IMG/VR virus record: IMGVR_UViG_3300009159_000033
From: a virus
Reading direction: 5' to 3' (one strand)
Length of the DNA: 64,000 bases
Position numbers and translations under genes: made by a program. Positions 14,786 to 64,000 of the stretch are shown here, piece after piece. The stretch's first letter is position 1. Every line of letters begins with the position of its first letter. The notes beneath the pieces were generated by a model. That model searched no databases and had not been told where the DNA came from. It was given only the letters and a program-made list of their open reading frames with translations.

Positions 14786-14797
14786 TGGAATTTAGTT

Positions 14798-14813
14798 TCA
14801 AATCCGGATTTTA
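14798..14813. promoter_or_regulatory. 16-bp palindromic site (1 mismatch) TCAAATCCGGATTTTA
   Basis: Intergenic, upstream of ATG 14832. Confidence 0.65.
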
Positions 14814-20618: not shown

Positions 20619-21941
20619 ATGACTACTGATGAAGCTTTGGATCAGCTTATAACTCAACTTCAAGGAAAAACAGCTAAAGTGATGGTGGTAGGTCTCGGCT
20701 ACGCTGGCCTACCTCTTGCTGAGTGTATTGCCAGTGCTGGGTTTGATGTCATTGGTTACGACATAGACCCAAACAAGGTTGAAATCCTACAACAAGGGAA
20801 AAGCTACTTAGAAACCATTCCTGCAGCTAGGGTGCAAAGCTTATTAAACACAGGTAAGTTTAAAGCAACCTCAGACATTGCTACTGCAGAACCTTGTGCC
20901 GTCTATTGGATTTGTGTCCCCACTCCTTTGGTAAATGGTGCCCCTACTCTAGATATCTTATATAATGCGATCAATGCAGTAAGCACAGTAGCTAAAACAC
21001 CTTTCTTGGTTGTGGTCTCTAGTACATCCTTCCCCGGAACCACTCGGTCTATGGGCTTGAGCATTCTAGAAGAAGATAGGAAAGAGGATCGCAACTTCTT
21101 TCTTGCCTTTAGCCAAGAAAGAGAAGATCCAGGCAATACCAAATTTACCACGAGAACGCTTCCTAGAGTCTTTGGAGCACTCAATGACTCTTCGGAAAAA
21201 GTGACTTCAGTTTTGTTTAATCAGCTGTTTGATGAGGTGCATCAAGCAAGCTCCATGGAAGCAGCAGAAGCCTCTAAAATGATGGAGAATGTCTATCGTG
21301 CGGTAAACATCGCACTTGCAAACGAATGGGCTGATATTTGTAATAAATTGGGTTTGGATGTGTGGGAGGTGATTAAACTCGCAGCAACCAAGCCTTTTGG
21401 CTTTCAAGCGTTTTATCCTGGTCCGGGTGTTGGTGGTCATTGCATCCCTGTGGACCCTTATTACCTTCTTCAAAAGCTGCAGAGCATGGGTTCAGACGCT
21501 GAGCTTATTAGTCTTGCGTGTGAACTGAACAAAAAGAGGCCAAGCGTAATCGTAGGCAAGCTAGTGGAGTTCTTAGGACTTTACACCCACCGCTTTGATG
21601 AAAGCTTTCCTATATTATTGATTGGGATAAGCTACAAAAAAAATGTAGGAGATCTTCGAGGTTCGCCAGCGCTTGAAATCCTTGATTTGCTCTGCAGAGA
21701 AGGTTTTGATGTAACATGGTATGATCCTTTAGTAGATAAGACAGACTTGGCTCTAGAATTATTGAGAGAAACTACTCTCAGCTCAATACTATTAAAGGAG
21801 CAAGCTGTCTGCATTATCCTTTCGGACCATGACATAATTGACTGGGATATGGTGTTAGCCCACTCCAACTTTATATTTGATACTAAGAACAAATATGCAA
21901 AGTGTGATGGGGTAAACCCGTTCAAGCTGATAAGACTTTAG
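20619..21941 (+). CDS. Nucleotide-sugar dehydrogenase (UDP-GlcNAc/ManNAc 6-dehydrogenase family)
   Basis: VVGLGYAGLP, ICVPTP, STSFPGTT, KMMENVYRAVNIA, GPGVGGHCIPVDP, YKKNVGDLRGSP. Confidence 0.92.
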   Translation: MTTDEALDQLITQLQGKTAKVMVVGLGYAGLPLAECIASAGFDVIGYDIDPNKVEILQQGKSYLETIPAARVQSLLNTGKFKATSDIATAEPCAVYWICVPTPLVNGAPTLDILYNAINAVSTVAKTPFLVVVSSTSFPGTTRSMGLSILEEDRKEDRNFFLAFSQEREDPGNTKFTTRTLPRVFGALNDSSEKVTSVLFNQLFDEVHQASSMEAAEASKMMENVYRAVNIALANEWADICNKLGLDVWEVIKLAATKPFGFQAFYPGPGVGGHCIPVDPYYLLQKLQSMGSDAELISLACELNKKRPSVIVGKLVEFLGLYTHRFDESFPILLIGISYKKNVGDLRGSPALEILDLLCREGFDVTWYDPLVDKTDLALELLRETTLSSILLKEQAVCIILSDHDIIDWDMVLAHSNFIFDTKNKYAKCDGVNPFKLIRL

Positions 21942-21947
21942 CTACCC

Positions 21948-21976
21948 TTGCGTTTAATCCCTATGCTATTTAAACT
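21948..21976 (+). promoter_or_regulatory. Sigma70-like promoter
   Basis: TTGCGT-17 nt-TAAACT before ORF 22016. Confidence 0.4.
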
Positions 21977-22015
21977 AAATTAGTGAAGTAGTTTAATAAC
22001 ATAGGGAAATGCATT

Positions 22016-22654
22016 ATGTACGCACAACGCACCAAACAAGCAAACATTGGTAAACTTTTGGCAAGCCTAGGGCTTGGCGGATTGATTGGAGGCGGTATTG
22101 GCCGTGTCTCTGGCTATAATTCTGGTAACCACGCAGGTTACGCAGAAGGCTCTGCAAATGCGAGCAAAGACACTTTAATAAATCTACTCAAAGGTATGAC
22201 TGGTGTTGTACAACAAGGCGCAGAAAGCAAGCTAGACTTAAAGAAGCTACTTGAATCTAAACCTGGTGTAATGCCATCTATTCCTATGGCTCCACTAAAT
22301 GCAGAATCAATTAAAACTGCAAAACTACGCAGAGTACTCCGCCGAGTAGAAAAGTCAGCTGCGGAGAAACGAGCCATTGCTGCGTTGTTAGCTGCGCTTA
22401 AGGGTGGTGGTGGTAAAGCGATGGGTGCAATTGAACGGCTGATGGGTAAAGCTGCACCTAAAACTCCTTTTGTTTCACAAGGTGCGCTCAATGCCGGACT
22501 TGAATCTTCTGCGGCGCGCCCCTTAAGCTTTGCGGAGTCTGCTCTGCCTGCCCTACCTAAAGGGTTTAGTGGTGTGCACCCCGCAGAACTTCCTGACACC
22601 GATATAATGCACAAATTATTTATGCTTAACCAAAAGTTTAAACACCAGAACTAG
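22016..22654 (+). CDS. KxA-motif protein with a glycine zipper, probable virion cargo
   Basis: TKQA leader, GLGGLIGGGIG zipper, VEKSAAEKRA. Confidence 0.55.
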   Translation: MYAQRTKQANIGKLLASLGLGGLIGGGIGRVSGYNSGNHAGYAEGSANASKDTLINLLKGMTGVVQQGAESKLDLKKLLESKPGVMPSIPMAPLNAESIKTAKLRRVLRRVEKSAAEKRAIAALLAALKGGGGKAMGAIERLMGKAAPKTPFVSQGALNAGLESSAARPLSFAESALPALPKGFSGVHPAELPDTDIMHKLFMLNQKFKHQN

Positions 22655-27014: not shown

Positions 27015-27125
27015 CTCTGTTTAAAGAATCAAATTAAAGTTAGCCCCAGCAATTGCTAAAGTTAACAAACAAAGTTAAAGTAATGACTAAGTTTGCGGTT
27101 TTGTTTCGATTTTATGGAGATAATC

Positions 27126-29930
27126 ATGTACGAAAAAAATGCTGATCTAATGGGTTCGTTTTCCAATGCAAGAAGTGCAGTGTCTAAAAGTGCATTAGGT
27201 CTATTAGACAAGATTAGAGGTACTTCCGTAAATGATGTAGTGGCGGATCGTGAAGCACAGGGCAAGCAGCTGCAAGACAGCATAACCGAAGCTATTCCTA
27301 AGTCTATTCGAGAAAATGTAGATTCCTTAAGCAGCCAACCTATAGGTGAATTAGCAGACAAAGCTACAAAAGCTTTGTCAAGCGTGGGAAATCATTCCAA
27401 ATTAGACACAAGTCCTTCCGCTTTATCCTACATTCCCGGCATTGGTGGATTTTTAGGTGGGTTAGCCAAACCGACACCAGGACGGGGCCGATTTGTTAGC
27501 TCCTTGGGTGAAGGTATTACCGGCAACGCTGGAGCTGGGTTAGGTGGTGCTTTAGGTTTTACAGGCGGTGCAGCACTAGGGGGTGTTGGTCACCTACTCA
27601 TGTCTTTGTTATCTAAGGGTAAATATCATAAGTTAACTGCTGGACTTGGAGCACAGCCTGCCATGATGGGTGGTGCAGCCCTTGGTGGCTTAACTGGTGG
27701 TTCCTTAGGTACGCACGCTGGTGCTGGTCTTTTCCGTGACATTGCTGCCAAACCAGAGAAAAGTGCTGAGCTTACCGGAAACCAAGAAGAAATTGATGTT
27801 AACAACAATGATAAAATTGAAGCAGCAGATTTAGCTAATTTGAGAAAAGGTAAAAATCTTTCTAAGGATAAGACTAAGTTTGCTGAATGGCCAGACAAGC
27901 CTACATTTACAGCAAATATGTCACTACCTGAAAAGCAACCTAATCGTTATGTGGTTGGTAAGAAATCTGCTCCAAAAGCAAATACAGCTGGGATAGAAGA
28001 GGCGCAGGCTAAACTTGCCTCACAAGACAATGCTTCTCCCTCTCGCTCAGCTGCAGGTGACAGTAAAGGAGTGAAGTACAAACAGCAGAACGAAGACCAT
28101 GCAACAGGCACAGCTGCGTTTGACTCTTTAGACAAGTATCTAAGAATGTCTAAGAAAGCCGGATTAAACGATTTCCAAACTAACTTCTTTGGTCGATTGA
28201 TCCAAGAAGGCAGAAATCAACAAGAGATTTACGCAGCGGTTAAACAAGCTAATGCTCAATTTGGAGCTGAAGTTGGTAAAGAATTAAAGCGTGGCTTTAA
28301 GAAGTTAGCAGGGGTTGGTAGCTTACTAGGACAAGGTCTTATGACCGCCGGTAGAGCTGCGATGGGTAATGCTGGCAATATTGCTAAGATTGGGGTTGGC
28401 GGTGGGGCACTAGCAGCGGGAGCAGGTGCGGGCTATGGTGCAGCTCAAATGCCCGAAGCAGTAAAAGGAGGAATCACTCAAGCAGCCCCCGCTATCGGTG
28501 CTGGTGTTGCAAATACTGCAATGGATCGCATGCAGAAGATGCCCGGACAAATTGCACAAAATCTACCTAGTCAGTTTGGTGACATGGCTGGTCAAGCTTT
28601 ACAAAGAATGCCAGCACAGTTTGGTGACATGGCTGGTCAAGCTTTACAAAGAATGCCATTTCAAATGGGCGGGGGACAATCTGGAATAGGACAATCAACC
28701 GGCGGCTTTGCTGGTCCTTACAAGCAAAGTAGGGATAAACAAGCAGGTGTGTGGGATAAGCTAGTAGGGTTAGGGCTTAAAGGTACAGGAGTTGCAACAA
28801 AAGCAGCACCTAGAATCATTGGTACTCCTACCGCAGGCACAGGCTTAGCTAATGTAGTAAATCAATCTACTAAGAGCACACTTGTACCTCGTATGGTAAC
28901 AGGTGCAACTACAGGTGCTATAAACCCATTCACTGGGGCTATGGCAGAAGGCCCTGAAGACGAAAGCGGTTGGGGTATGGCTGGAAGAATTGGAGCTAGT
29001 GCTTTAGCTGGTGCCGGCCTTGGTGGTGCTGGCAACATGAAAATGAATAACATGCTGAAGCGTATGAGTGGTGGTACTTTTGCCGGTGGTGCTGCGGACC
29101 AAGCTGCAGGGCTAGCAGGTTATGACACAGGTGGTTATGGCGCAAAAGGCGGTTTCCTTGGTGCAGCTGCTTTACCTAAACTCTACTCTAAAGGTGGCGT
29201 TACAGGAATTGGGGCCACTAAAATACCTGGCACACAGAAAACTATCTCAGATTTAGCGGGCTTTGCTGGTGGTACCGGCGGTAAATCCATACAGACTGCA
29301 GATTTACTAAGTTTAGCTGATCCATTTAATATGGGCATGAAAGGTATAGGTGCAGGTTACAAAGCATTAAAACCATTTGCCAAATCTAATCCTATAGCCA
29401 CTGCTGGTTTAGGGTTAGGAGCTGCAGGGGTTGGCACTGGAGCTTACATGGCTAATTCAGTTAAGGGTATGCGTGATGACATGGCCAAGCAAATGACTAG
29501 CTTCCGCAATGAAGCTAACAACCACTTGTCCGGTATTCGTCAAGATCTTGGCGGTGGCATGGGCGGAATTGGACAGTTCTTTAATGAGAATAAACATTGG
29601 TTGATGCCTGCGTTGTTGGCGGGCGGGGGTGCCCTTGCGGGCGGTGCACTAGGTGGTGGTACCGGTGCTGCACTAGGCGGTCTTAGCTTACCCGCTCTCT
29701 ACATGATGCACCAGAATGGTATGTTTGGTGGCGGTGGTGCTGCTAATCCTTTACAAGCACCAGAAGGTAAACCACGTCTCGATTACGCACAGCAAAATCA
29801 ACAACATGCAAGAGAGGAAGCAGACAAGCAAGTTGCTGCTCGTACTCAAGATCCAAGGTTGGCAAGCCCCACGAAAAAAAATAACTCCGTGGGTGGTGGT
29901 GGATTAATAAATCCTAATAACATGAAATAA
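27126..29930 (+). CDS. Large Gly/Ala-rich KxA-punctuated protein with glycine zippers, probable virion/ejection protein
   Basis: Start moved to ATG 27126 (SD ggaga); six KxA-type boundary sites; no Cys seen; several GxxxG runs. Confidence 0.6.
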   Translation: MYEKNADLMGSFSNARSAVSKSALGLLDKIRGTSVNDVVADREAQGKQLQDSITEAIPKSIRENVDSLSSQPIGELADKATKALSSVGNHSKLDTSPSALSYIPGIGGFLGGLAKPTPGRGRFVSSLGEGITGNAGAGLGGALGFTGGAALGGVGHLLMSLLSKGKYHKLTAGLGAQPAMMGGAALGGLTGGSLGTHAGAGLFRDIAAKPEKSAELTGNQEEIDVNNNDKIEAADLANLRKGKNLSKDKTKFAEWPDKPTFTANMSLPEKQPNRYVVGKKSAPKANTAGIEEAQAKLASQDNASPSRSAAGDSKGVKYKQQNEDHATGTAAFDSLDKYLRMSKKAGLNDFQTNFFGRLIQEGRNQQEIYAAVKQANAQFGAEVGKELKRGFKKLAGVGSLLGQGLMTAGRAAMGNAGNIAKIGVGGGALAAGAGAGYGAAQMPEAVKGGITQAAPAIGAGVANTAMDRMQKMPGQIAQNLPSQFGDMAGQALQRMPAQFGDMAGQALQRMPFQMGGGQSGIGQSTGGFAGPYKQSRDKQAGVWDKLVGLGLKGTGVATKAAPRIIGTPTAGTGLANVVNQSTKSTLVPRMVTGATTGAINPFTGAMAEGPEDESGWGMAGRIGASALAGAGLGGAGNMKMNNMLKRMSGGTFAGGAADQAAGLAGYDTGGYGAKGGFLGAAALPKLYSKGGVTGIGATKIPGTQKTISDLAGFAGGTGGKSIQTADLLSLADPFNMGMKGIGAGYKALKPFAKSNPIATAGLGLGAAGVGTGAYMANSVKGMRDDMAKQMTSFRNEANNHLSGIRQDLGGGMGGIGQFFNENKHWLMPALLAGGGALAGGALGGGTGAALGGLSLPALYMMHQNGMFGGGGAANPLQAPEGKPRLDYAQQNQQHAREEADKQVAARTQDPRLASPTKKNNSVGGGGLINPNNMK
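28572..28658 (+). repeat. In-frame tandem duplication (45-nt period, QFGDMAGQALQRMP x2)
   Basis: Two identical 42-nt copies. Confidence 0.9.
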
Positions 29931-29942
29931 ATGAAGCTGTGT

Positions 29943-30236
29943 GTCGAGTAAGTGGCTGTGTAGAGCGCAAGGCGGGTTGTATACTCCCCGTATCATCTCT
30001 AGCAGCTGGGTGCGTTTGTTTCTAGTAGATAAACGCACAGAACGCTGCTGGGGAAAATTCCTTGCGATCAGTGTTTCGGGCAGTTGGAATGGTGGCTGTT
30101 TTAAAGGGTCCACGATACCTCAGGTCTCCTTTCGCCCTACCACCATACAACTTGAGACCTCTGATACACCACAGGGTGTCACGTTTCGACGAGGAAAGGC
30201 GGAAACGCTAGACCGGGTGCGACTGCCCAGCTTGAC
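29943..30236 (+). ncRNA. Candidate structured, pseudoknotted ncRNA (about 295 nt), family unknown
   Basis: GC-richer intergenic block with at least 8 helices found by eye; G-U pairs favour the + strand. Confidence 0.55.
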
Positions 30237-30238
30237 TT

Positions 30239-30254
30239 TAAATTCTGGATTTTA
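30239..30254. promoter_or_regulatory. 16-bp palindromic site TAAATTCTGGATTTTA
   Basis: Intergenic, 16 nt before ATG 30271. Confidence 0.7.
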
Positions 30255-30270
30255 GAAAAGAAAGAATAAC

Positions 30271-31104
30271 ATGATTAGTAAGGAATTCTATTTTTTTGAT
30301 TGTTTAGGACTTTATCATAAACGAAATGTTTTTGCTCCAGAGCAAATAGCTGCAGCTAATCAAGTGGTGGACGAGTGTCAAGCAAACGCAAGATTTAAGC
30401 GTGGTACTTTGGCTAATGAGATCATCAAATACTTTGGCATATGGGAATCACACCCAATTTTCTTAGAGTTAGCAAACCACCCTGCCGTCCTTGAAGTGTG
30501 TAACCATTCCTTTGGAGGCCCAGATTCTTTTCGTTTGGATCATGCTCTCATCGTTGAATCTACTCCTAAAGATAAATTACAAGGTCTTTTGCATGGGCTT
30601 AGTTTTGGTAAGAACACTACGCACTATCACTTAACCCAAGGTCAGCCACATTTGAACAGCGTATGTTGGACTAGAATTGGGCAGCTTTCTGTTGCAATCA
30701 TATTACAGCCACAAAGTTCAAAGACGGGGGGCTTTTGTTTTATACCCGGATCGCATAAAACTTCTTATTTTGTTTCAGGGCAAGAACTGCACAAGCACAT
30801 ATTTAAAAAACAATCTTTAGACATAAATGAGGAACATCTTATTATTCCTGATTTAAACCCAGGAGATCTGATTGCATTTCCCGAGTCTTTAATTCATGGA
30901 CAAACAGGTATAGCGGGAGCAGAAGAAAATCGTAGGCTTATTTTTAATATGTTCTATCCCATGGGTATTAGGTTTATGGACTGGACTGAGCAATACAAAA
31001 AGATTAGAGAGCATACAAAAGACGAGAAAAAGTTAAAAATTATTAAAGAGTTACCTTCAGATTTAATAAAGTTAGACCCAAATTACGCTGGACCCTCTAA
31101 GTGA
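30271..31104 (+). CDS. Phytanoyl-CoA dioxygenase (PhyH)-family Fe(II)/2OG oxygenase
   Basis: FRLDH, LHG, FIPGSHK, PGDLIAFPESLIHG, RRLIF. Confidence 0.75.
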   Translation: MISKEFYFFDCLGLYHKRNVFAPEQIAAANQVVDECQANARFKRGTLANEIIKYFGIWESHPIFLELANHPAVLEVCNHSFGGPDSFRLDHALIVESTPKDKLQGLLHGLSFGKNTTHYHLTQGQPHLNSVCWTRIGQLSVAIILQPQSSKTGGFCFIPGSHKTSYFVSGQELHKHIFKKQSLDINEEHLIIPDLNPGDLIAFPESLIHGQTGIAGAEENRRLIFNMFYPMGIRFMDWTEQYKKIREHTKDEKKLKIIKELPSDLIKLDPNYAGPSK

Positions 31105-33183: not shown

Positions 33184-34185
33184 ATGCGAAGAAGTTTAGC
33201 AAGTCAGTATCGAGTTAAAACCGCACATCACTTACTTAACATCGTTGCGTTGAAGCGAGAAATGGACACCTACAGTGTAGACGGTCTGTTGAAAGCTGCT
33301 TCTACTGGGCATAGCAAAGAAGCTTGTTTAAGATACGCTGGATTACACGCTGCTTTGTTGATTGAAAAGCGAGCGGTAGACAGCTATAATTTTGGACCAG
33401 ATACAGCTGCATTTAAAAACAATAGTCCAAAACCAGCTGCACCTACAGTAACACCGCCTACAGCAGCACCTGCAGCAAAAATACCAAATCGTGGCTTTGC
33501 TGGCTTATTTGGAGGCGGAAGCGCAGCTCCTAAACCCGCAGCTTCGAGTTCTAGTGGTTCTGGTTACACCGGTGGTAACTATATGATTAACACTCAAGCT
33601 ACAAAGCCTTCCACCGCACCTAGCAACCTTGATGCAAGTATGCTGGATGGACTTCTTGCCCACAGTAAAGCTAATGATGTGCAAGCCCCTGGTTTATCAG
33701 TTCTATCCCCAGCAAGCCCACCACCTGCAATGAATAATGCAGGCACAGCCTCAAGGAGACAAGCTCCGGCACCACTTACCGCAAATGTGATTCCTAAACC
33801 GCAAGGCACGGCTAATGCAACCAGTGGTTTAGGTTATGATCCTACTGGCTCCGGAAGTGCTGGAAGAGTTTCGGGTACTAAGCCTGCTCCAACCCCTCCC
33901 GAAAATGATATGAGCAGCAAAAAGTTTAAACCTACTGCAGACACCGTAGACCCTGTTGAAGAAGCTTACTCCAAGCAATTAAACGAAAGTGCTGCTGCTG
34001 CTGCAAAAACTGACAAAATGCCAAGCCTTTCAGAAAGTTCTGGGGCAGAAGGCGGTGTACCTGCAGCACAAGAAGCAATAGCTGCACAATCTCAAGGTAA
34101 TGGGCGTAGTGGTCGCTTCTTTAATGGACAAGGTATTGGGCAAGGTCTCCAAAACCGTGGTCGCCTATTTGGGCGAGGCCGTTAA
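33184..34185 (+). CDS. KxA-leader protein with a low-complexity Pro/Ala/Ser/Gly body
   Basis: N-terminal helical module ending IEKRA, then disordered region. Confidence 0.6.
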   Translation: MRRSLASQYRVKTAHHLLNIVALKREMDTYSVDGLLKAASTGHSKEACLRYAGLHAALLIEKRAVDSYNFGPDTAAFKNNSPKPAAPTVTPPTAAPAAKIPNRGFAGLFGGGSAAPKPAASSSSGSGYTGGNYMINTQATKPSTAPSNLDASMLDGLLAHSKANDVQAPGLSVLSPASPPPAMNNAGTASRRQAPAPLTANVIPKPQGTANATSGLGYDPTGSGSAGRVSGTKPAPTPPENDMSSKKFKPTADTVDPVEEAYSKQLNESAAAAAKTDKMPSLSESSGAEGGVPAAQEAIAAQSQGNGRSGRFFNGQGIGQGLQNRGRLFGRGR

Positions 34186-34190
34186 TTAGT

Positions 34191-34206
34191 TAAAATCTAG
34201 AATTGA
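34191..34206. promoter_or_regulatory. 16-bp palindromic site TAAAATCTAGAATTGA
   Basis: Intergenic, just after the stop of 33184. Confidence 0.7.
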
Positions 34207-34238
34207 ACCTAGGCACTTATTTGTAGCTTAGGTTCAAT
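34202..34238. terminator. Intergenic hairpin overlapping the palindrome
   Basis: ATTGAACCTA/TAGGTTCAAT stem followed by CTAGTTTCTTT. Confidence 0.5.
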
Positions 34239-34260
34239 CTAGTTTCTTTTGAGGGATAGC

Positions 34261-35493
34261 ATGGCAAATTATACGAATGAAAAGCTTGCTTGGGAGGCTT
34301 TAACCAACATGTTTGGGGGTTCAAAGCCTACTCCAAATCCAGCTCTTGCACGTATCAATTTACCAGCTCCTGCTCAACCTGATTACTCTGGCGGTTGGTT
34401 AGGTGGTATGCTTGGTATGTCTGGGCCTACTCCTAATACCTTAACTAAAGGTATGCAGGCAGATAGGGCTGCTGGAACAGATACTGCTTCTCGTCATGAA
34501 GCTATGCGCAAAGCTATGCCCGCAAATCTACCAGCTCCACCTCCTCCACCACCTGATCACTCAGGCGGTTGGTTAGGTAATATGCTTGGTATGTCTGGGC
34601 CTACCCCTAATACTACAACTGCAGGTTTTCGTGCAGATCAAGCTGCGGGGACAGATACAGCATCAAGACAAAACGCACAGATGCAAGCTGGAACAAATGT
34701 TGGGGGTGGTACCCCTATAGGCGTAGACGAAGTGGCGGGAACTAATGTTGGCGGTGGAATCCCTGAAGGAGTTAAACAATCCATGGACAAGCAAGCTATA
34801 GCTCTTAGAGCAAATCGTTTACATATTTTGAACACAGAGATTGCTCGATACAATCCTGCCAATTTGATTAAACAAGCTGCAGACTATCCCACTACAAGCA
34901 ATAAGCAAGCATGTGCTTATTACCTTGGGTTGAAGAAGCAAGCAGCGGTAGAGAAGAAAGCTTTTCTTAAAGCATTAGGTAAAATATTAGGTGGTGCTTA
35001 TGGTGTGGCCAAAGGTGCAGTTACTGGGGCAGCTCCTCATGTAGGTGACGCAATGCGTGGAGCAGCAACAGGAGTTAGAAATTACACTGTAGCTAATCCT
35101 CTTAAAGCCGTAGCAGGTGGTGGTGCCCTTGGGCTTACCGGCGAACACTATGTCTTACCATTCTTAGGTGATGTAGCTAACACCGTCAAAGATAGATACA
35201 ACGAGTCCGCAAAAGGATTTGATGAATTCATGCATAGGCTTGGTAGAGGCTACAAAGCAACTACTGCTGACCCGACTTCTGACTTTTCAAGCGATGGTAT
35301 AAACAAAGCCAAAAAAGTAATAGAAAGCGTTACTCCTAAAGCAATTACTTCTGGCATCATACCTTCCAAACCTTCTAGACTGCTTGAAGTAGAAGAAGGC
35401 TCTATTCCTGATGATTTTAAGTCTAGATCTTTGCCTAGGGATAACCCCCAGTGGAGAAGTGGAACACGTGGTCGAGACTACCCCAGATACTAG
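34261..35493 (+). CDS. KxA-punctuated protein with an internal duplication
   Basis: Start at ATG 34261 (SD gaggga); NEKLA, DKQA, IKQA, KKQAAVEKKA. Confidence 0.6.
   Translation: MANYTNEKLAWEALTNMFGGSKPTPNPALARINLPAPAQPDYSGGWLGGMLGMSGPTPNTLTKGMQADRAAGTDTASRHEAMRKAMPANLPAPPPPPPDHSGGWLGNMLGMSGPTPNTTTAGFRADQAAGTDTASRQNAQMQAGTNVGGGTPIGVDEVAGTNVGGGIPEGVKQSMDKQAIALRANRLHILNTEIARYNPANLIKQAADYPTTSNKQACAYYLGLKKQAAVEKKAFLKALGKILGGAYGVAKGAVTGAAPHVGDAMRGAATGVRNYTVANPLKAVAGGGALGLTGEHYVLPFLGDVANTVKDRYNESAKGFDEFMHRLGRGYKATTADPTSDFSSDGINKAKKVIESVTPKAITSGIIPSKPSRLLEVEEGSIPDDFKSRSLPRDNPQWRSGTRGRDYPRY
34381..34668 (+). repeat. In-frame duplication, 174-nt period (D.SGGWLG.MLGMSGPTPNT...AAGTDTASR)
   Basis: Two diverged copies visible in DNA and protein. 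Confidence 0.85.
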
Positions 35494-42244: not shown

Positions 42245-42246
42245 TC

Positions 42247-42441
42247 AGCCCAAGTGGCTTTATCGCAGGTGCCGATAGGTTAGGAAATGCAGTGCAGCTA
42301 GGATAGCCGCAATTTGTATTAGGATTGCTGGGCAAGTGAAAAACAGCCAGCTGGTGGAGTTTCAGTCGCACCTTATGACTGTTACCAGCGGAACGCTTCC
42401 GCACTGGACTTGAGGGAGGGGATCTCAAGGGGCCACTTAGC
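42247..42441 (+). ncRNA. Candidate structured ncRNA (about 195 nt), GGA-rich
   Basis: Closing stem AAGTGGC/GCCACTT and at least 5 internal hairpins. Confidence 0.45.
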
Positions 42442-42472
42442 TATTTCTCTTGCTTACAAGGATGTCACAAGC

Positions 42473-49087: not shown

Positions 49088-49519
49088 ATGGCTACAGTAC
49101 AAGAACAATTGGAACAAACAATCCTTGCAATGATTGATCGTTACAAAGAATACACAGCAGACGGAAAAATAACTTATTCAGAAGTGCTTGGGTTGTTGTA
49201 CAACGGGGCAGCAACCCTTGTGCGACTTGTAGAAATAGCTGGGCAGGGCAGCCGTGCAGAAAAAAAGCAGCTAGTGTTAGCAGGGCTTGATAAGTTTTAC
49301 GATACCGTAATTGCTCCAATCGACATCATTGGTGTTCCTAATATGCTTGAGCCCATGGTTGATTCCACTATAAAGTCATTGTTACTTTCTACAGTTGATG
49401 GGGCTACTGATTCTATATTTAATGTGTTTGAAAAGATGGGCTGGATAGCTGAAGATAGCGGTAATGAGCCTCATGCTGTTAAAATGGCAGCAAGGGCTAA
49501 GCCTGTTATGATTTTTTAA
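49088..49519 (+). CDS. Hypothetical helical protein
   Basis: 143-aa ORF, SD aaggag. Confidence 0.6.
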   Translation: MATVQEQLEQTILAMIDRYKEYTADGKITYSEVLGLLYNGAATLVRLVEIAGQGSRAEKKQLVLAGLDKFYDTVIAPIDIIGVPNMLEPMVDSTIKSLLLSTVDGATDSIFNVFEKMGWIAEDSGNEPHAVKMAARAKPVMIF

Positions 49520-49532
49520 ATTCTAGATTTTA
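49517..49532. promoter_or_regulatory. 16-bp palindromic site TAAATTCTAGATTTTA
   Basis: Starts on the stop codon of 49088, 9 nt before ATG 49542. Confidence 0.7.
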
Positions 49533-57030: not shown

Positions 57031-57603
57031 ATGGACTCTTCTTTACGATCTTCTGACTACTACTACCGAGACCGAAAACCAGAGGTTATTCCCGAGATTG
57101 TTCCTACTCCTACTTATCAACAATCCTCTAGTATAAACTCTTCTAACAATAAGTATTATGCCGAGATGGGACCACTTGTTGCAGAAGATGTCCCTCTTAT
57201 TGCTAAGCTTCAGATGCCTCCGAAAGAAGTAGAATTGGAGATACTTGATGGTTGCTATGGCCTAGCTACCATACAAGCTGCATTTGAAGACGGAGCCACC
57301 CGCATCATAGTTAAAGCCTATGACTATGTAGTGACTCAACTGCAAGTTGCTGTAGACATGTCAGTGGGTCGTGGAGAATTAACACGAGAGCAAACAGACT
57401 CTATAGTTTTTGTTGTCTTAGCCCCAGAAGCTATTCTTAGCCCAGAAGAAGTAGCTCTACCTATTGTAGATATGCCAGAGGCGACTGCTGTTTTAAACGA
57501 GGCTCCTAAGCCATCTCGTAAAAAAGCAAAGCGTGGCAAGAGTGAGGAAATTACTCTTAAAGATATCGAAGCTGCCTTTGGTGGTGACGATAGTGACGAC
57601 TAA
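57031..57603 (+). CDS. Hypothetical protein
   Basis: 190-aa ORF abutting the previous stop. Confidence 0.55.
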   Translation: MDSSLRSSDYYYRDRKPEVIPEIVPTPTYQQSSSINSSNNKYYAEMGPLVAEDVPLIAKLQMPPKEVELEILDGCYGLATIQAAFEDGATRIIVKAYDYVVTQLQVAVDMSVGRGELTREQTDSIVFVVLAPEAILSPEEVALPIVDMPEATAVLNEAPKPSRKKAKRGKSEEITLKDIEAAFGGDDSDD

Positions 57604-57616
57604 AATCCAGATTTTA
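57601..57616. promoter_or_regulatory. 16-bp palindromic site TAAAATCCAGATTTTA
   Basis: Starts on the stop of 57031, 28 nt before the beta'-C ATG. Confidence 0.7.
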
Positions 57617-57644
57617 AATAATTTGCACACTCTGAGAACTATCC

Positions 57645-61686: not shown

Positions 61687-64000
61687 ATGGAAATGCCTAG
61701 ACAAAATAATTTATTGAAGAATGCTAGTATCGGCGGTAAGGGAGGAGAAACTGAATTTGAACAAGCTTTCTCTAGCTTGGCTTATGCTTATTTAAAAGAT
61801 AAGGCACCCCGCCTCCTTGATTACATGTTAGGCTTCCAGCTAATTGATCGAAATGAAGATAACACTAAAGCTATTGGTGTCTTTGGTTTTCAAGTCGGCA
61901 AGCAATGGTTGTACGCTCCTGTATTTTTCTTAAATGGTGATTTAAAAGGACACGAGTTACTCTACATAAAAAATAATGATTCGTTTGTTCCTATGAAGGA
62001 AAACTGGATCAACTATCTTATGAGTCGAAAACCTCATATTTTAGGGGAGTCTTCCGTAGGTAAATTACAAGAGTTAGGAGGAATCGCTCCTGATATCAAT
62101 TCTTTATCTATTTCTCCCCAAGGCCACAAGCACGCAAGTGATTCCCAGTGGTTACAGCCCGTTCTACCTATGCTAGCGGCCTTCAAAGTAAAACTTGCGG
62201 GCTCTTTGTACCGTGGTGCCGGCAGCCGTAAGCTGGATCAAAAGGCAGTTGTTCGAGTGCCATTCACAGCAGCATTAACCAAGACAGCTTCAAATCTGGA
62301 TTTTAACCAAGTGCTGCCTAAAAGCTTGGCATTACTTGAAGCAGCTTACGACTTAGCAGAACGCTATCCCACCATTAAAAAAGCTACTAGTGACTTCTAT
62401 GGTGTGGATTGTTTTTCACGCTGGGCTAAAGAACTTCGAAGTAACACAATCAAGCAGGCTAGCAGCATTCTTCCTACGCCTACTACTGTCACACTTGTGC
62501 CCAACACCTTGCTAAGCTCACTATCCCAGCCACTTCCTATTACCGACCACATTAAGGAAGGTAAGTTAGAAGTCTATATGTCAGCTTCTGTGGTAACTAA
62601 TAAAGATGAGCTAAACACCCTAGATCGAGAAAGGTTATTACAAGGCAAAGTAGTCATCAAAGATCGTAGAGAAGATACAGAAGTAAGTAAGCTTTACACC
62701 ACTGAAAATGATATTAGCCTCACCAACCCCTCTGAAACTGAATTGTATTCTGTTTTAGAGAGCTCTGGTGAATTTAGTAAAATGTTGGTGGTCTTGAATG
62801 GTATCAGCAGTCGTGGAGCAGAGTCCATGACCACAGTTGTACGGATAGATAAAAAGGATGGGGCTAACAAAAGCTGGTTAAATGCCGACAGCACGTCAGT
62901 TTTTGCTACACAAGTTTCTGACAAAGACGAGTGGAAAGATTGGTTTGATGGCTTATCCTCTGATACAGACTTGGACGAGGATGCAGAATATATTGCTATA
63001 AACTACAGTCGTTCAGCTACTGCTCCTTTCCGTGTAACTACGGACATGGGTGATGGTGAGTACAAAGTAGATTTTCGCACGAATAAAGATTATTCAGCTT
63101 CACGTAGCGAGCTGATGCCTAAGATACAAGATCGGTATGCTCCTTCTAGGCGGGGCATGGCAGCAGGTGCTAATCTAATAAGTTCTTTCAATAGTAATAG
63201 TAATTATGGGGCTACTCTAATCATTGGCAAAGAAGATAAGAGCGGCCTTAGACTTAGACCTGTCTCCGGACAACTTCGTGTGCCAGCTTCTTTCAAGTTC
63301 ATCAAATTGTCGGATGGTTCTTCTTCCAGCATCTTTGGCGGGTGTGGCTGTTCACCTTTTGACGATGAATCAAATCCTATTAAGTTAGGTGGCTTAGCTG
63401 ACATCAAACGCTTATTAGTTGAAAAGACAGCTAGGCTCAAGATATTTAATAACGGAACTGATGTGTACCTAGACTCTGTAATCGGTGCCGTTCAATTAAG
63501 CAAAAAAGCAGCACTATGCCGCTTGGTAGACACACATGGACTTCGTGAAAAAGTTGCCGTGGATATGCTGCAACAAGCAGAGAAAAAAGGTCATGCAATT
63601 TATCGTGTGCTTTATGCTGCTGGTTATGGGACCGAGAAACAAGCTGAGCCTAATACCAGCGTGTTAGCTGGAGGCCCATCCTTCCCCCTTGATACGGATA
63701 CTTCTGGGGATCGTGGCAGTGAAACCTATGGCCCAAGCACCTCTGCCCTAACTCGATATTCTACCGAGAAAAACTCGCCTATCCCTTCAATGAGCGGTAA
63801 GAACACAAATAGGTCTAAGTGGGACAACTGGCAGAACTTTGAAGCTAAAGATTTTCAACAAAATCTGCAATCTGCTCAAACTGCTGGCAAAGATGGGCAG
63901 AAAGAAGTATTTGATGTTTCAATGATGGCAGGTATGTTAAAAACAGTAAGACAAGATTCACTAGTAGATCGCCACTTGGGCGACTTAATGGCAGCCTTGG
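61687..64000 (+). CDS. Large KxA-punctuated protein, 3' end outside the window (not in the ORF track)
   Basis: Open frame from ATG 61687 (MEMPRQNNLLKNASIGG...FEQAFSSLAYAYLKDKAP) to the window end, at least 771 codons by my translation. Confidence 0.8.
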   Translation, partial: MEMPRQNNLLKNASIGGKGGETEFEQAFSSLAYAYLKDKAPRLLDYMLGFQLIDRNEDNTKAIGVFGFQVGKQWLYAPVFFLNGDLKGHELLYIKNNDSFVPMKENWINYLMSRKPHILGESSVGKLQELGGIAPDINSLSISPQGHKHASDSQWLQPVLPMLAAFKVKLAGSLYRGAGSRKLDQKAVVRVPFTAALTKTASNLDFNQVLPKSLALLEAAYDLAERYPTIKKATSDFYGVDCFSRWAKELRSNTIKQASSILPTPTTVTLVPNTLLSSLSQPLPITDHIKEGKLEVYMSASVVTNKDELNTLDRERLLQGKVVIKDRREDTEVSKLYTTENDISLTNPSETELYSVLESSGEFSKMLVVLNGISSRGAESMTTVVRIDKKDGANKSWLNADSTSVFATQVSDKDEWKDWFDGLSSDTDLDEDAEYIAINYSRSATAPFRVTTDMGDGEYKVDFRTNKDYSASRSELMPKIQDRYAPSRRGMAAGANLISSFNSNSNYGATLIIGKEDKSGLRLRPVSGQLRVPASFKFIKLSDGSSSSIFGGCGCSPFDDESNPIKLGGLADIKRLLVEKTARLKIFNNGTDVYLDSVIGAVQLSKKAALCRLVDTHGLREKVAVDMLQQAEKKGHAIYRVLYAAGYGTEKQAEPNTSVLAGGPSFPLDTDTSGDRGSETYGPSTSALTRYSTEKNSPIPSMSGKNTNRSKWDNWQNFEAKDFQQNLQSAQTAGKDGQKEVFDVSMMAGMLKTVRQDSLVDRHLGDLMAAL
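62290..62305. promoter_or_regulatory. 16-bp palindromic site (1 mismatch) TCAAATCTGGATTTTA
   Basis: Inside CDS 61687. Confidence 0.45.

Follow-up and report, generated by a model that had tools for sequence, protein, structure and literature searches.

What occupies a 340-nt gap between two protein genes of a large aquatic phage? The window that we analyzed is a 64,000-nt stretch of the 172.7-kb IMG/VR virus record IMGVR_UViG_3300009159_000033, and the gap lies between a 945-codon open reading frame (ORF) at 27093-29930, hereafter the glycine-rich gene, and a gene for a PhyH-like dioxygenase at 30271-31104; the neighboring genes are all on the + strand. A sequence-only reading of the window had placed in this gap a candidate for a new, pseudoknotted, noncoding RNA of about 295 nt on the + strand. 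We find that the element is almost certainly a real and new structured RNA: it has no Rfam match, the ORF that overlaps it is broken in its relatives, and its helices covary strongly. The element is neither a coding sequence nor a simple regulatory hairpin. Below, we derive its fold from homologues in two phage clades, describe where it occurs, and weigh what it might do.

Compensatory changes in two phage clades define the fold

Homologues were collected from the contigs of relatives of the upstream protein and from one metagenome motif scan, yielding 12 distinct freshwater-type sequences and a single divergent marine one. The element is 90-99% identical across the 12 freshwater-type sequences; for comparison, DNA identity is 84-94% for the helicase gene, whose protein is 93-98% identical among the same relatives, and 51-99% for the first 900 nt of the glycine-rich gene. 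The block homologous to the related phage G005 (29924-30263, 92% identity) has sharp edges, and its flanks are 73-82% identical or non-homologous. The marine homologue (L062:5167-5489) lies directly after a distant glycine-rich gene (protein P0025) on a 186-kb TARA Oceans scaffold. It is approximately 48% identical to the window RNA and matches our covariance model R1 with 96 bits (E = 4e-31).

We assessed whether the homologues covary, a check that the sequence-only reading had proposed, on a two-clade alignment of 12 sequences. In this alignment 99.5% of the cells of the 84 modeled pairs are paired, and 33 of the 84 pairs have changed on both sides and are still paired, compared with 2-5 when the partners were slid against each other and 5.4 in shuffles. 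PK1, PK2, and P6a (Table 1) were absent from the alignment model, yet all three covary, and L062 folded alone by minimum energy gives the same architecture. Helices are kept by compensatory changes, which is the mark of a new structured-RNA family. The + strand of the element folds with -116.6 kcal/mol (z = -2.7), as good as none of 100 shuffles, and the - strand reaches z = -2.5. G-U pairs had been said to favor the + strand, and this is borne out in the covariation-supported model, where they make up 16 of 85 pairs; they would read A-C on the other strand, so the folded strand is the + strand. The GC content of 29943-30236 is 0.531 versus 0.426 for the window, in the 99th percentile of 294-nt windows. 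The claim that the element is GC-richer than its flanks applies to the downstream side (0.386), whereas the upstream coding flank is nearly equal (0.512).

In the modeled fold, P1 encloses two domains, a 5' domain consisting of P2/P2a, P3, and P4 and a 3' domain in which P5 surrounds P6/P6a, P7/P7a, and P8a. The P4 loop is the predicted hub of two loop-loop pseudoknots: PK1 connects it with the P2 internal loop, and PK2 connects it with the P6a loop. P1 (7 pairs), P2 (11 pairs), P5 (9 pairs), and PK1 (7 pairs) are each 100% paired. Four pairs of P1 have changed on both sides in L062 (AGUAGGC/GCCUACU), as have five pairs of P2 and three of P5 in the alignment, and the terminal C-G of PK1, a helix outside model R1, is A-U in L062. 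Among the unpaired columns, PK2 is one of only two conserved stems of at least 5 bp and the sole one retained in L062, where it reads UGGAGG/CCUCCA with one additional nucleotide per strand; freshwater variants carry a G-U to A-U (G-to-A) and a U-A to U-G (A-to-G) change in it, both compatible with pairing. P4 reads GGGCACCG/CUGUGCCC in L062, with two pairs covarying and two changed on one side only, and P6 reads AUGUUAG/CUAACAU, with two pairs covarying. P6a is GGAAG(U)/(A)CUUCC in L062, and AGGUCUCCUU is common to both clades. An A-U pair of P7 is G-C in L062, and a G-U pair has become A-U independently in L025 and L062. The loop of P2a has indels of 1-3 nt among relatives, and one of its pairs covaries. 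The P8a loop is not kept in L062, and this hairpin is therefore peripheral.

Overall, the hairpin tips are variable and the junctions and loops are invariant (GCAAGG, CCUUGC, AGGUCUCCUU, AACUUG, and CGGGUGC); the unpaired segments AGGUCUCCUU, AACUUG, and CGGGUGC are retained in both clades. Such variation is typical of RNAs that have tertiary structure. Two further signals were set aside. An alternative hairpin, GGGUC/GGUCU (30106-10 with 30123-27), fits the freshwater data and is lost in L062, where AGGGU/GCCCU covaries instead. A correlated G-U to A-C change beside the GAAA hairpin belongs to one haplotype block and so is not independent evidence.

Much of the detailed fold put forward in the sequence-only reading stands. 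All 14 helix strands to which it gave coordinates are exactly in place, six motifs that it named without coordinates are present too, and 7 of its 10 helices hold on the two-clade alignment, most of them with compensatory changes: the closing helix, CGCAAGG/CCTTGCG, CGGG/CCCG, the GTGCGTTTG hairpin, GGGCAGTT/GACTGCCC, ATGGTGG/CCACCAT, and ACACC/GGTGT. The other three fail. TAGCAGC/GCTGCTG has five of six cells unpaired in L062 and is replaced by the covarying P2 and P4, and CGTTTC/GAAACG has four unpaired cells in L062 and is replaced by P7. AGGTCTC/GAGACCT has five unpaired cells among the freshwater variants, and the same G-to-A change that arose independently in L025 and L062 both breaks it and converts the P7 G-U pair to A-U. 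Because AGGTCTC/GAGACCT fails, ATGGTGG/CCACCAT, which had been proposed to form a pseudoknot with its loop, is an ordinary nested helix, and that pseudoknot is absent. The RNA is pseudoknotted all the same, via PK1 and PK2.

Table 1 Positions of the RNA, its helices, and associated motifs in the window
Feature	Position	Strand	Remarks
Whole conserved block	29928..30258	+	From TAA stop of glycine-rich gene to just past palindromic motif
RNA body	29943-30236	+	~295 nt
P1 5' strand GTCGAGT	29943..29949	+	Pairs with 30230-30236; closes whole RNA, joins both ends
P2 5' strand GGCTGT, one bulged G, TAGAG	29954..29965	+	Pairs with 29997-30007
PK1 5' strand CGCAAGG	29966..29972	+	In P2 internal loop; pairs with 30060-30066 in P4 loop
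P2a hairpin CGGG/CCCG	29973..29990	+	Loop length varies
P2 3' strand	29997..30007	+	
P3 variable hairpin GTGCGTTTGTTT/AGATAAACGCAC	30010..30038	+	Both-sided changes in 8 of 12 pairs
P4 5' strand GAACGCTG	30040..30047	+	Pairs with 30069-30076
PK2 5' strand CTGGGG	30048..30053	+	In P4 loop; pairs with CCTCAG 30118-30123
PK1 3' strand CCTTGCG	30060..30066	+	
P4 3' strand CAGTGTTT	30069..30076	+	
P5 5' strand GGGCAGTTG	30078..30086	+	Pairs with 30220-30228; closes 3' domain
P6 5' strand ATGGTGG	30089..30095	+	Pairs with 30140-30146; nested
P6a hairpin, AGGGT 30105-09 with GCCCT 30134-38	30105..30138	+	Loop holds CCTCAG (PK2) and conserved AGGTCTCCTT
P6 3' strand CCACCAT	30140..30146	+	
P7, TGAGAC 30153-58 with GTTTCG 30183-88	30153..30188	+	Encloses P7a
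P7a hairpin, ACACC with GGTGT	30166-70 with 30175-79	+	Both-sided changes in 4 of 5 pairs
P8a hairpin GCG-GAAA-CGC	30199..30208	+	GNRA loop; freshwater clade
P5 3' strand CGACTGCCC	30220..30228	+	Universally conserved unpaired CGGGTGC just 5'
P1 3' strand GCTTGAC	30230..30236	+	
Palindromic intergenic motif TTTAAATTCTGGATTTTA	30237..30254		Borders RNA, outside RNA fold; generic genome-wide signal
Copies of palindromic motif include	1277-1294, 14796-14813, 30237-30254, 34191-34208, 49515-49532, 57601-57618, 62288-62305		

The RNA matches no known family and does not code for protein

A covariance search with Rfam 15 (4227 models), likewise named as a check in the sequence-only reading, returned no match at gathering thresholds in the whole window. 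The models covered include RNase P, tmRNA, 6S, SRP, group I/II introns, ROOL, GOLLD, HEARO, OLE, raiA, pRNA, T-box, and the self-cleaving ribozymes. At E values up to 10, the region 29700-30500 gave four sub-threshold matches only (best, 17.7 bits versus a threshold of 33.3), and the marine homologue gave one noise match. ARAGORN found no tRNA or tmRNA in the window. The earlier statement that the RNA cannot be matched to tmRNA, RNase P, 6S, SRP, or a group I/II intron agrees with these searches, and we found no published family that matches it.

Two of these classes were considered individually and rejected. Members of the RNase P RNA family share the conserved P4 pseudoknot nucleotides GAGGAAAGUCC ... 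ACAGAA. The P4-like words of the freshwater copies, ACAGAAC and GAGGAAAG, are replaced in L062 by UGUCGGG and GAGAGUA, and there is no covariance-model match. As for a group I/II intron, the element follows a stop codon, the genes found downstream in different phages are unrelated to one another, and again no covariance model matches.

A protein gene at ORF 29941-30255 is likewise rejected. This frame has 104 codons in the window; conservation at the protein level, which would have argued for a gene, is absent, since the frame is broken in every relative, where it stays open for 33-92 codons, compared with 106 counted for the window, and is interrupted by indels of 1-2 nt. Indels in the relatives break every reading frame of the element, and the ORF has no Pfam or PHROG match. 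We also considered a 6-codon mini-ORF, ATGAAGCTGTGTGTCGAGTAA, at 29931-29951 (ATG AAG CTG TGT GTC GAG TAA), which begins right past the upstream stop codon, runs into the 5' strand of P1, and is present in all freshwater copies. Because it carries non-synonymous changes and is absent from L062, it was rejected as a leader peptide.

The RNA follows a fast-evolving gene in a lineage of large phages

The phage codes for a bacterial-type multisubunit RNA polymerase, an SNF2 helicase, and many sugar-modifying enzymes. Judged by the helicase, even its closest isolates, Salmonella phage Arash and Pseudanabaena phage PA-SR01, share just ~31% identity with it. Four relatives, G001-G004, have helicases 67-72% identical to that of the window, and one of them is 92% complete; no RNA was found in these four by BLAST, nhmmer, model R1, or the two-clade model R3, and the positive control, G005, was found. 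The same four are without the glycine-rich gene as well. BLAST with the element, its marine variant, and the marine glycine-rich protein gave no match among 50,697 isolate phages. Two exact core motifs gave no match in 185,579 prokaryote species genomes (GTDB), so no host or prophage copy was seen, with the proviso that exact motifs miss diverged copies. Motif scans of IMG/VR recovered one known relative only, the rest being chance matches. Among the candidates from motif scans, L004-L024 and L060 were ruled out by nhmmer or cmsearch, and L046, from the metagenome scan, is a chance match within a coding region.

A side observation concerns the copy at L057:5191-5524, which looks mosaic, with changes of the L026/L028 type in its 5' and middle parts and a 3' part of the L030 type. 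This sequence pattern suggests recombination inside the element between co-occurring phages.

In both clades, the glycine-rich gene is always directly 5' of the RNA, which starts 0-2 nt past its stop codon in 13 of 13 sequences. The encoded protein is low in complexity and rich in glycine and alanine, has no family match in Pfam or PHROG, and is probably virion-internal. This gene evolves very fast, its protein being 39-100% identical over the first 300 residues versus 93-98% for the helicase, and its C terminus is swapped between close relatives. The gene 3' of the RNA varies and may encode PhyH, a polysaccharide deacetylase, a 263-amino-acid (aa) product, or a 174-aa product, or be a 69-aa ORF. 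Beyond the marine RNA, an uncalled ORF of ~69 codons (L062:5490-5699) fills what appears to be a 209-nt gap and starts ~12 nt after an 8-U run that directly follows P1. Both flanks of the RNA are AU-rich or U-rich and unpaired, and a consensus scan of 29600-30400 found no sigma-70-type promoter and no intrinsic terminator.

The RNA had also been said to end just before a palindromic site, and it does, at a distance of 0-2 nt, with the site itself outside the RNA fold. The palindrome TTTAAATTCTGGATTTTA has 14 copies genome-wide with at most 3 mismatches versus 0.23 expected, and its core, AAAWYCNGGATTT, occurs 22 times versus 1.9 expected; the copies lie mostly 10-45 nt before start codons. In some relatives, the GGA of the palindrome is the sole Shine-Dalgarno-like element. 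The motif could be a translational operator, for example a hairpin presenting GGA to a phage CsrA, or a phage promoter or terminator signal. Two short intergenic stretches elsewhere, 21940-22019 and 34175-34270, are as conserved with G005 (89-92%) as coding DNA is, and the latter includes one copy of the palindrome.

A second conserved structured RNA lies at 42245-42450, behind a TTGCTG/TATAAT promoter-like pair. Its identity in G005 is 96-98%, and G001-G004 lack it. Its segments 42327-34, 42340-49, and 42363-72 are complementary to the RNA studied here. Homology between the two was ruled out with the covariance model.

Discussion

We consider it somewhat more likely than not that the element, a member of a previously unclassified family of structured phage RNAs, is a compact RNA that is released from a late transcript and works through its shape. 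To the narrower claim that the RNA operates as a free, folded particle instead of acting only in cis, we give slightly less than even weight on the sequence data. With no sigma-70-type promoter nearby, the RNA is probably made as the tail of the glycine-rich gene transcript, having no promoter of its own. Cuts in its AU-rich single-stranded flanks would release a compact, folded, nuclease-resistant molecule from the late polycistronic transcript, and this molecule would work by its three-dimensional shape, serving as a catalyst or as a platform to which a protein or another RNA binds. We prefer this reading because variable tips combined with invariant junctions and loops, an end-joining helix, and AU- or U-rich flanks resemble what is seen in folded-particle RNAs. 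Several points weigh against it. The family is rare, with only 13 distinct sequences found, and nearly all covariation in the invariant core comes from one divergent sequence, L062. The alignment used (A9) was fitted to a model that already held most of the nested helices. Finally, in every phage 20-35 nt separate the end of the RNA from the start codon that follows, as would be expected of a 5' leader.

This spacing makes a cis-acting 5' leader the main rival: a riboswitch, attenuator, or processive-antitermination element controlling the accessory sugar- or glycan-modifying genes that follow. Antitermination leaders of the RNA or ops type (EAR RNA, JUMPstart/RfaH) are frequent in long polysaccharide operons, and phage HK022 has put RNAs that act in cis on RNA polymerase. 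The genes that follow the RNA encode accessory enzymes in both clades (PhyH, polysaccharide deacetylase, sulfotransferase, methyltransferase, glycosyltransferase, and MIOX), and in the marine L062 the 3' strand of P1 is followed directly by the run of eight U residues, which is terminator-like. However, that run is lost in the freshwater clade (UUUAAAUU), the consensus scan found no terminator, and we saw no conserved expression platform that would hide a ribosome-binding site. Even close relatives differ in the first gene downstream but share the one upstream, and ~295 nt exceeds almost all known aptamers. A leader therefore appears unlikely to us, if still the strongest competitor. The RNA could instead be a 3'-untranslated-region (3'-UTR) element of the glycine-rich gene: a structured cap that shields the mRNA from 3' exonucleases, a site at which processing splits one cistron from the next, or a terminator of an unusual kind used by the phage RNA polymerase. 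Consistent with this, the RNA begins immediately after the stop codon in all 13 sequences, co-occurs with the glycine-rich gene in two clades (both being absent from four relatives), and is separated from it by no promoter. On the other hand, known protective or processing elements are single hairpins, a doubly pseudoknotted fold of two domains with invariant loops goes well beyond what such a role requires, and close packing of this kind is usual in dense phage genomes and need not be meaningful. We regard this explanation as improbable, more so than a leader.

Alternatively, the RNA could function by pairing with the conserved RNA at 42245-42450 in the same phage. Two exact 10-nt complementarities (30093-102 with 42340-49 and 30216-25 with 42363-72) and two of 8 nt connect the RNAs; the element has 8 complementary 8-mer positions versus 0.94 in shuffles, a count reached by 1 of 500 shuffles. 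Among 331-nt segments of the 64-kb window, this puts it in the top 0.4%. G000 and G005 carry both RNAs, and G001-G004 carry neither. Yet with ~190 independent windows, about one such region is expected by chance, and the complementary stretches are strands of P5 and P6 that have changed in L062. Both RNAs are nearly invariant across the two genomes compared, and the covariance model shows no homology between them. We treat this pairing, seen at the sequence level, as a lead only and think it quite improbable. The last alternative holds that there is no RNA element: the block would either encode a protein through ORF 29941-30255 or act as a signal at the DNA level, for instance an origin, a packaging site, or a recombination boundary. 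The 104-codon frame is indeed open in the window, and the block lies on the edge of a region of variable gene content, with the mosaic-like L057 among its variants. Against this stand the 1- and 2-nt indels that leave the frame open for so short a distance in relatives, the lack of a Pfam or PHROG match, and the 33 compensatory pairs and 16 G-U pairs, which mark a single-stranded + fold rather than duplex DNA. This alternative is effectively refuted.

Comparison with known RNA systems helps to place the preferred reading of a released, shape-dependent RNA. ROOL (RF03087) and GOLLD (RF01998) are likewise large, multi-helix, pseudoknotted noncoding RNAs of phages and prophages with conserved loop-loop pairings, and their function is not known. 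In contrast to them, the present RNA shows no sequence or structure match to either even at E values up to 10 and is about half their size or less, ROOL being ~580 nt and GOLLD ~800 nt long. It also has no adjoining tRNA genes (there are none in the window) and lies between protein genes of one transcription unit. The phi29-type pRNA (RF00044) is likewise phage-encoded and structured, a folded particle that uses loop-loop pairing; in pRNA this pairing joins separate molecules into a ring on the portal. Our RNA differs in having no Rfam match, in size (pRNA is ~120-174 nt), and in genome position and phage type, and we saw no link to packaging. Bacterial RNase P RNA is similar in size and has an end-joining helix and long-range pseudoknots, with P4-like words found in the freshwater clade only, but no model matches, those words are lost in the marine homologue, and the helices come in a different order. 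Large cis-regulatory leaders (T-box, cobalamin riboswitch, EAR, and put) also lie directly upstream of a gene and are pseudoknotted with a P1-type closing helix, whereas this RNA has no model match, no constant downstream gene, and no recognizable expression platform and is tied to the upstream gene.

The comparison with ROOL and GOLLD raises a further possibility. Their loop-loop pairings were first seen by covariation and were later found by cryo-electron microscopy (cryo-EM) to be bridges between molecules (10.1101/2024.12.08.627333). The covariation of PK1 and PK2 fits pairing within or between molecules alike, and these two pseudoknots could link one molecule to another, as the covarying kissing loops of ROOL and GOLLD turned out to do. 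We speculate, by analogy and at long odds, that the RNA may be the first of a new class of phage RNAs that self-assemble or are catalytic; PK1 and PK2 would then be wholly or partly intermolecular bridges of a multimeric particle, or the invariant junctions would form a ribozyme active site. Such an RNA would be produced alongside the glycine-rich, probably virion-internal protein, and the two might also act jointly, perhaps within the capsid or when the DNA is ejected.

Few large RNAs combine a complex fold with a conserved sequence, and the ones with a solved function have time and again proved to be ribozymes, guide RNAs, or self-assembling particles. The RNA described here occurs in an unexplored lineage of large aquatic phages with their own RNA polymerase. 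Were it instead a leader or a 3'-UTR element, it would be unusually elaborate for a phage. Its size of ~295 nt, its well-constrained fold, and its two testable pseudoknots suit chemical probing, cryo-EM, and cleavage or binding assays, and its fixed place after the gene of a fast-evolving, probable virion protein provides a concrete first hypothesis about its partner.
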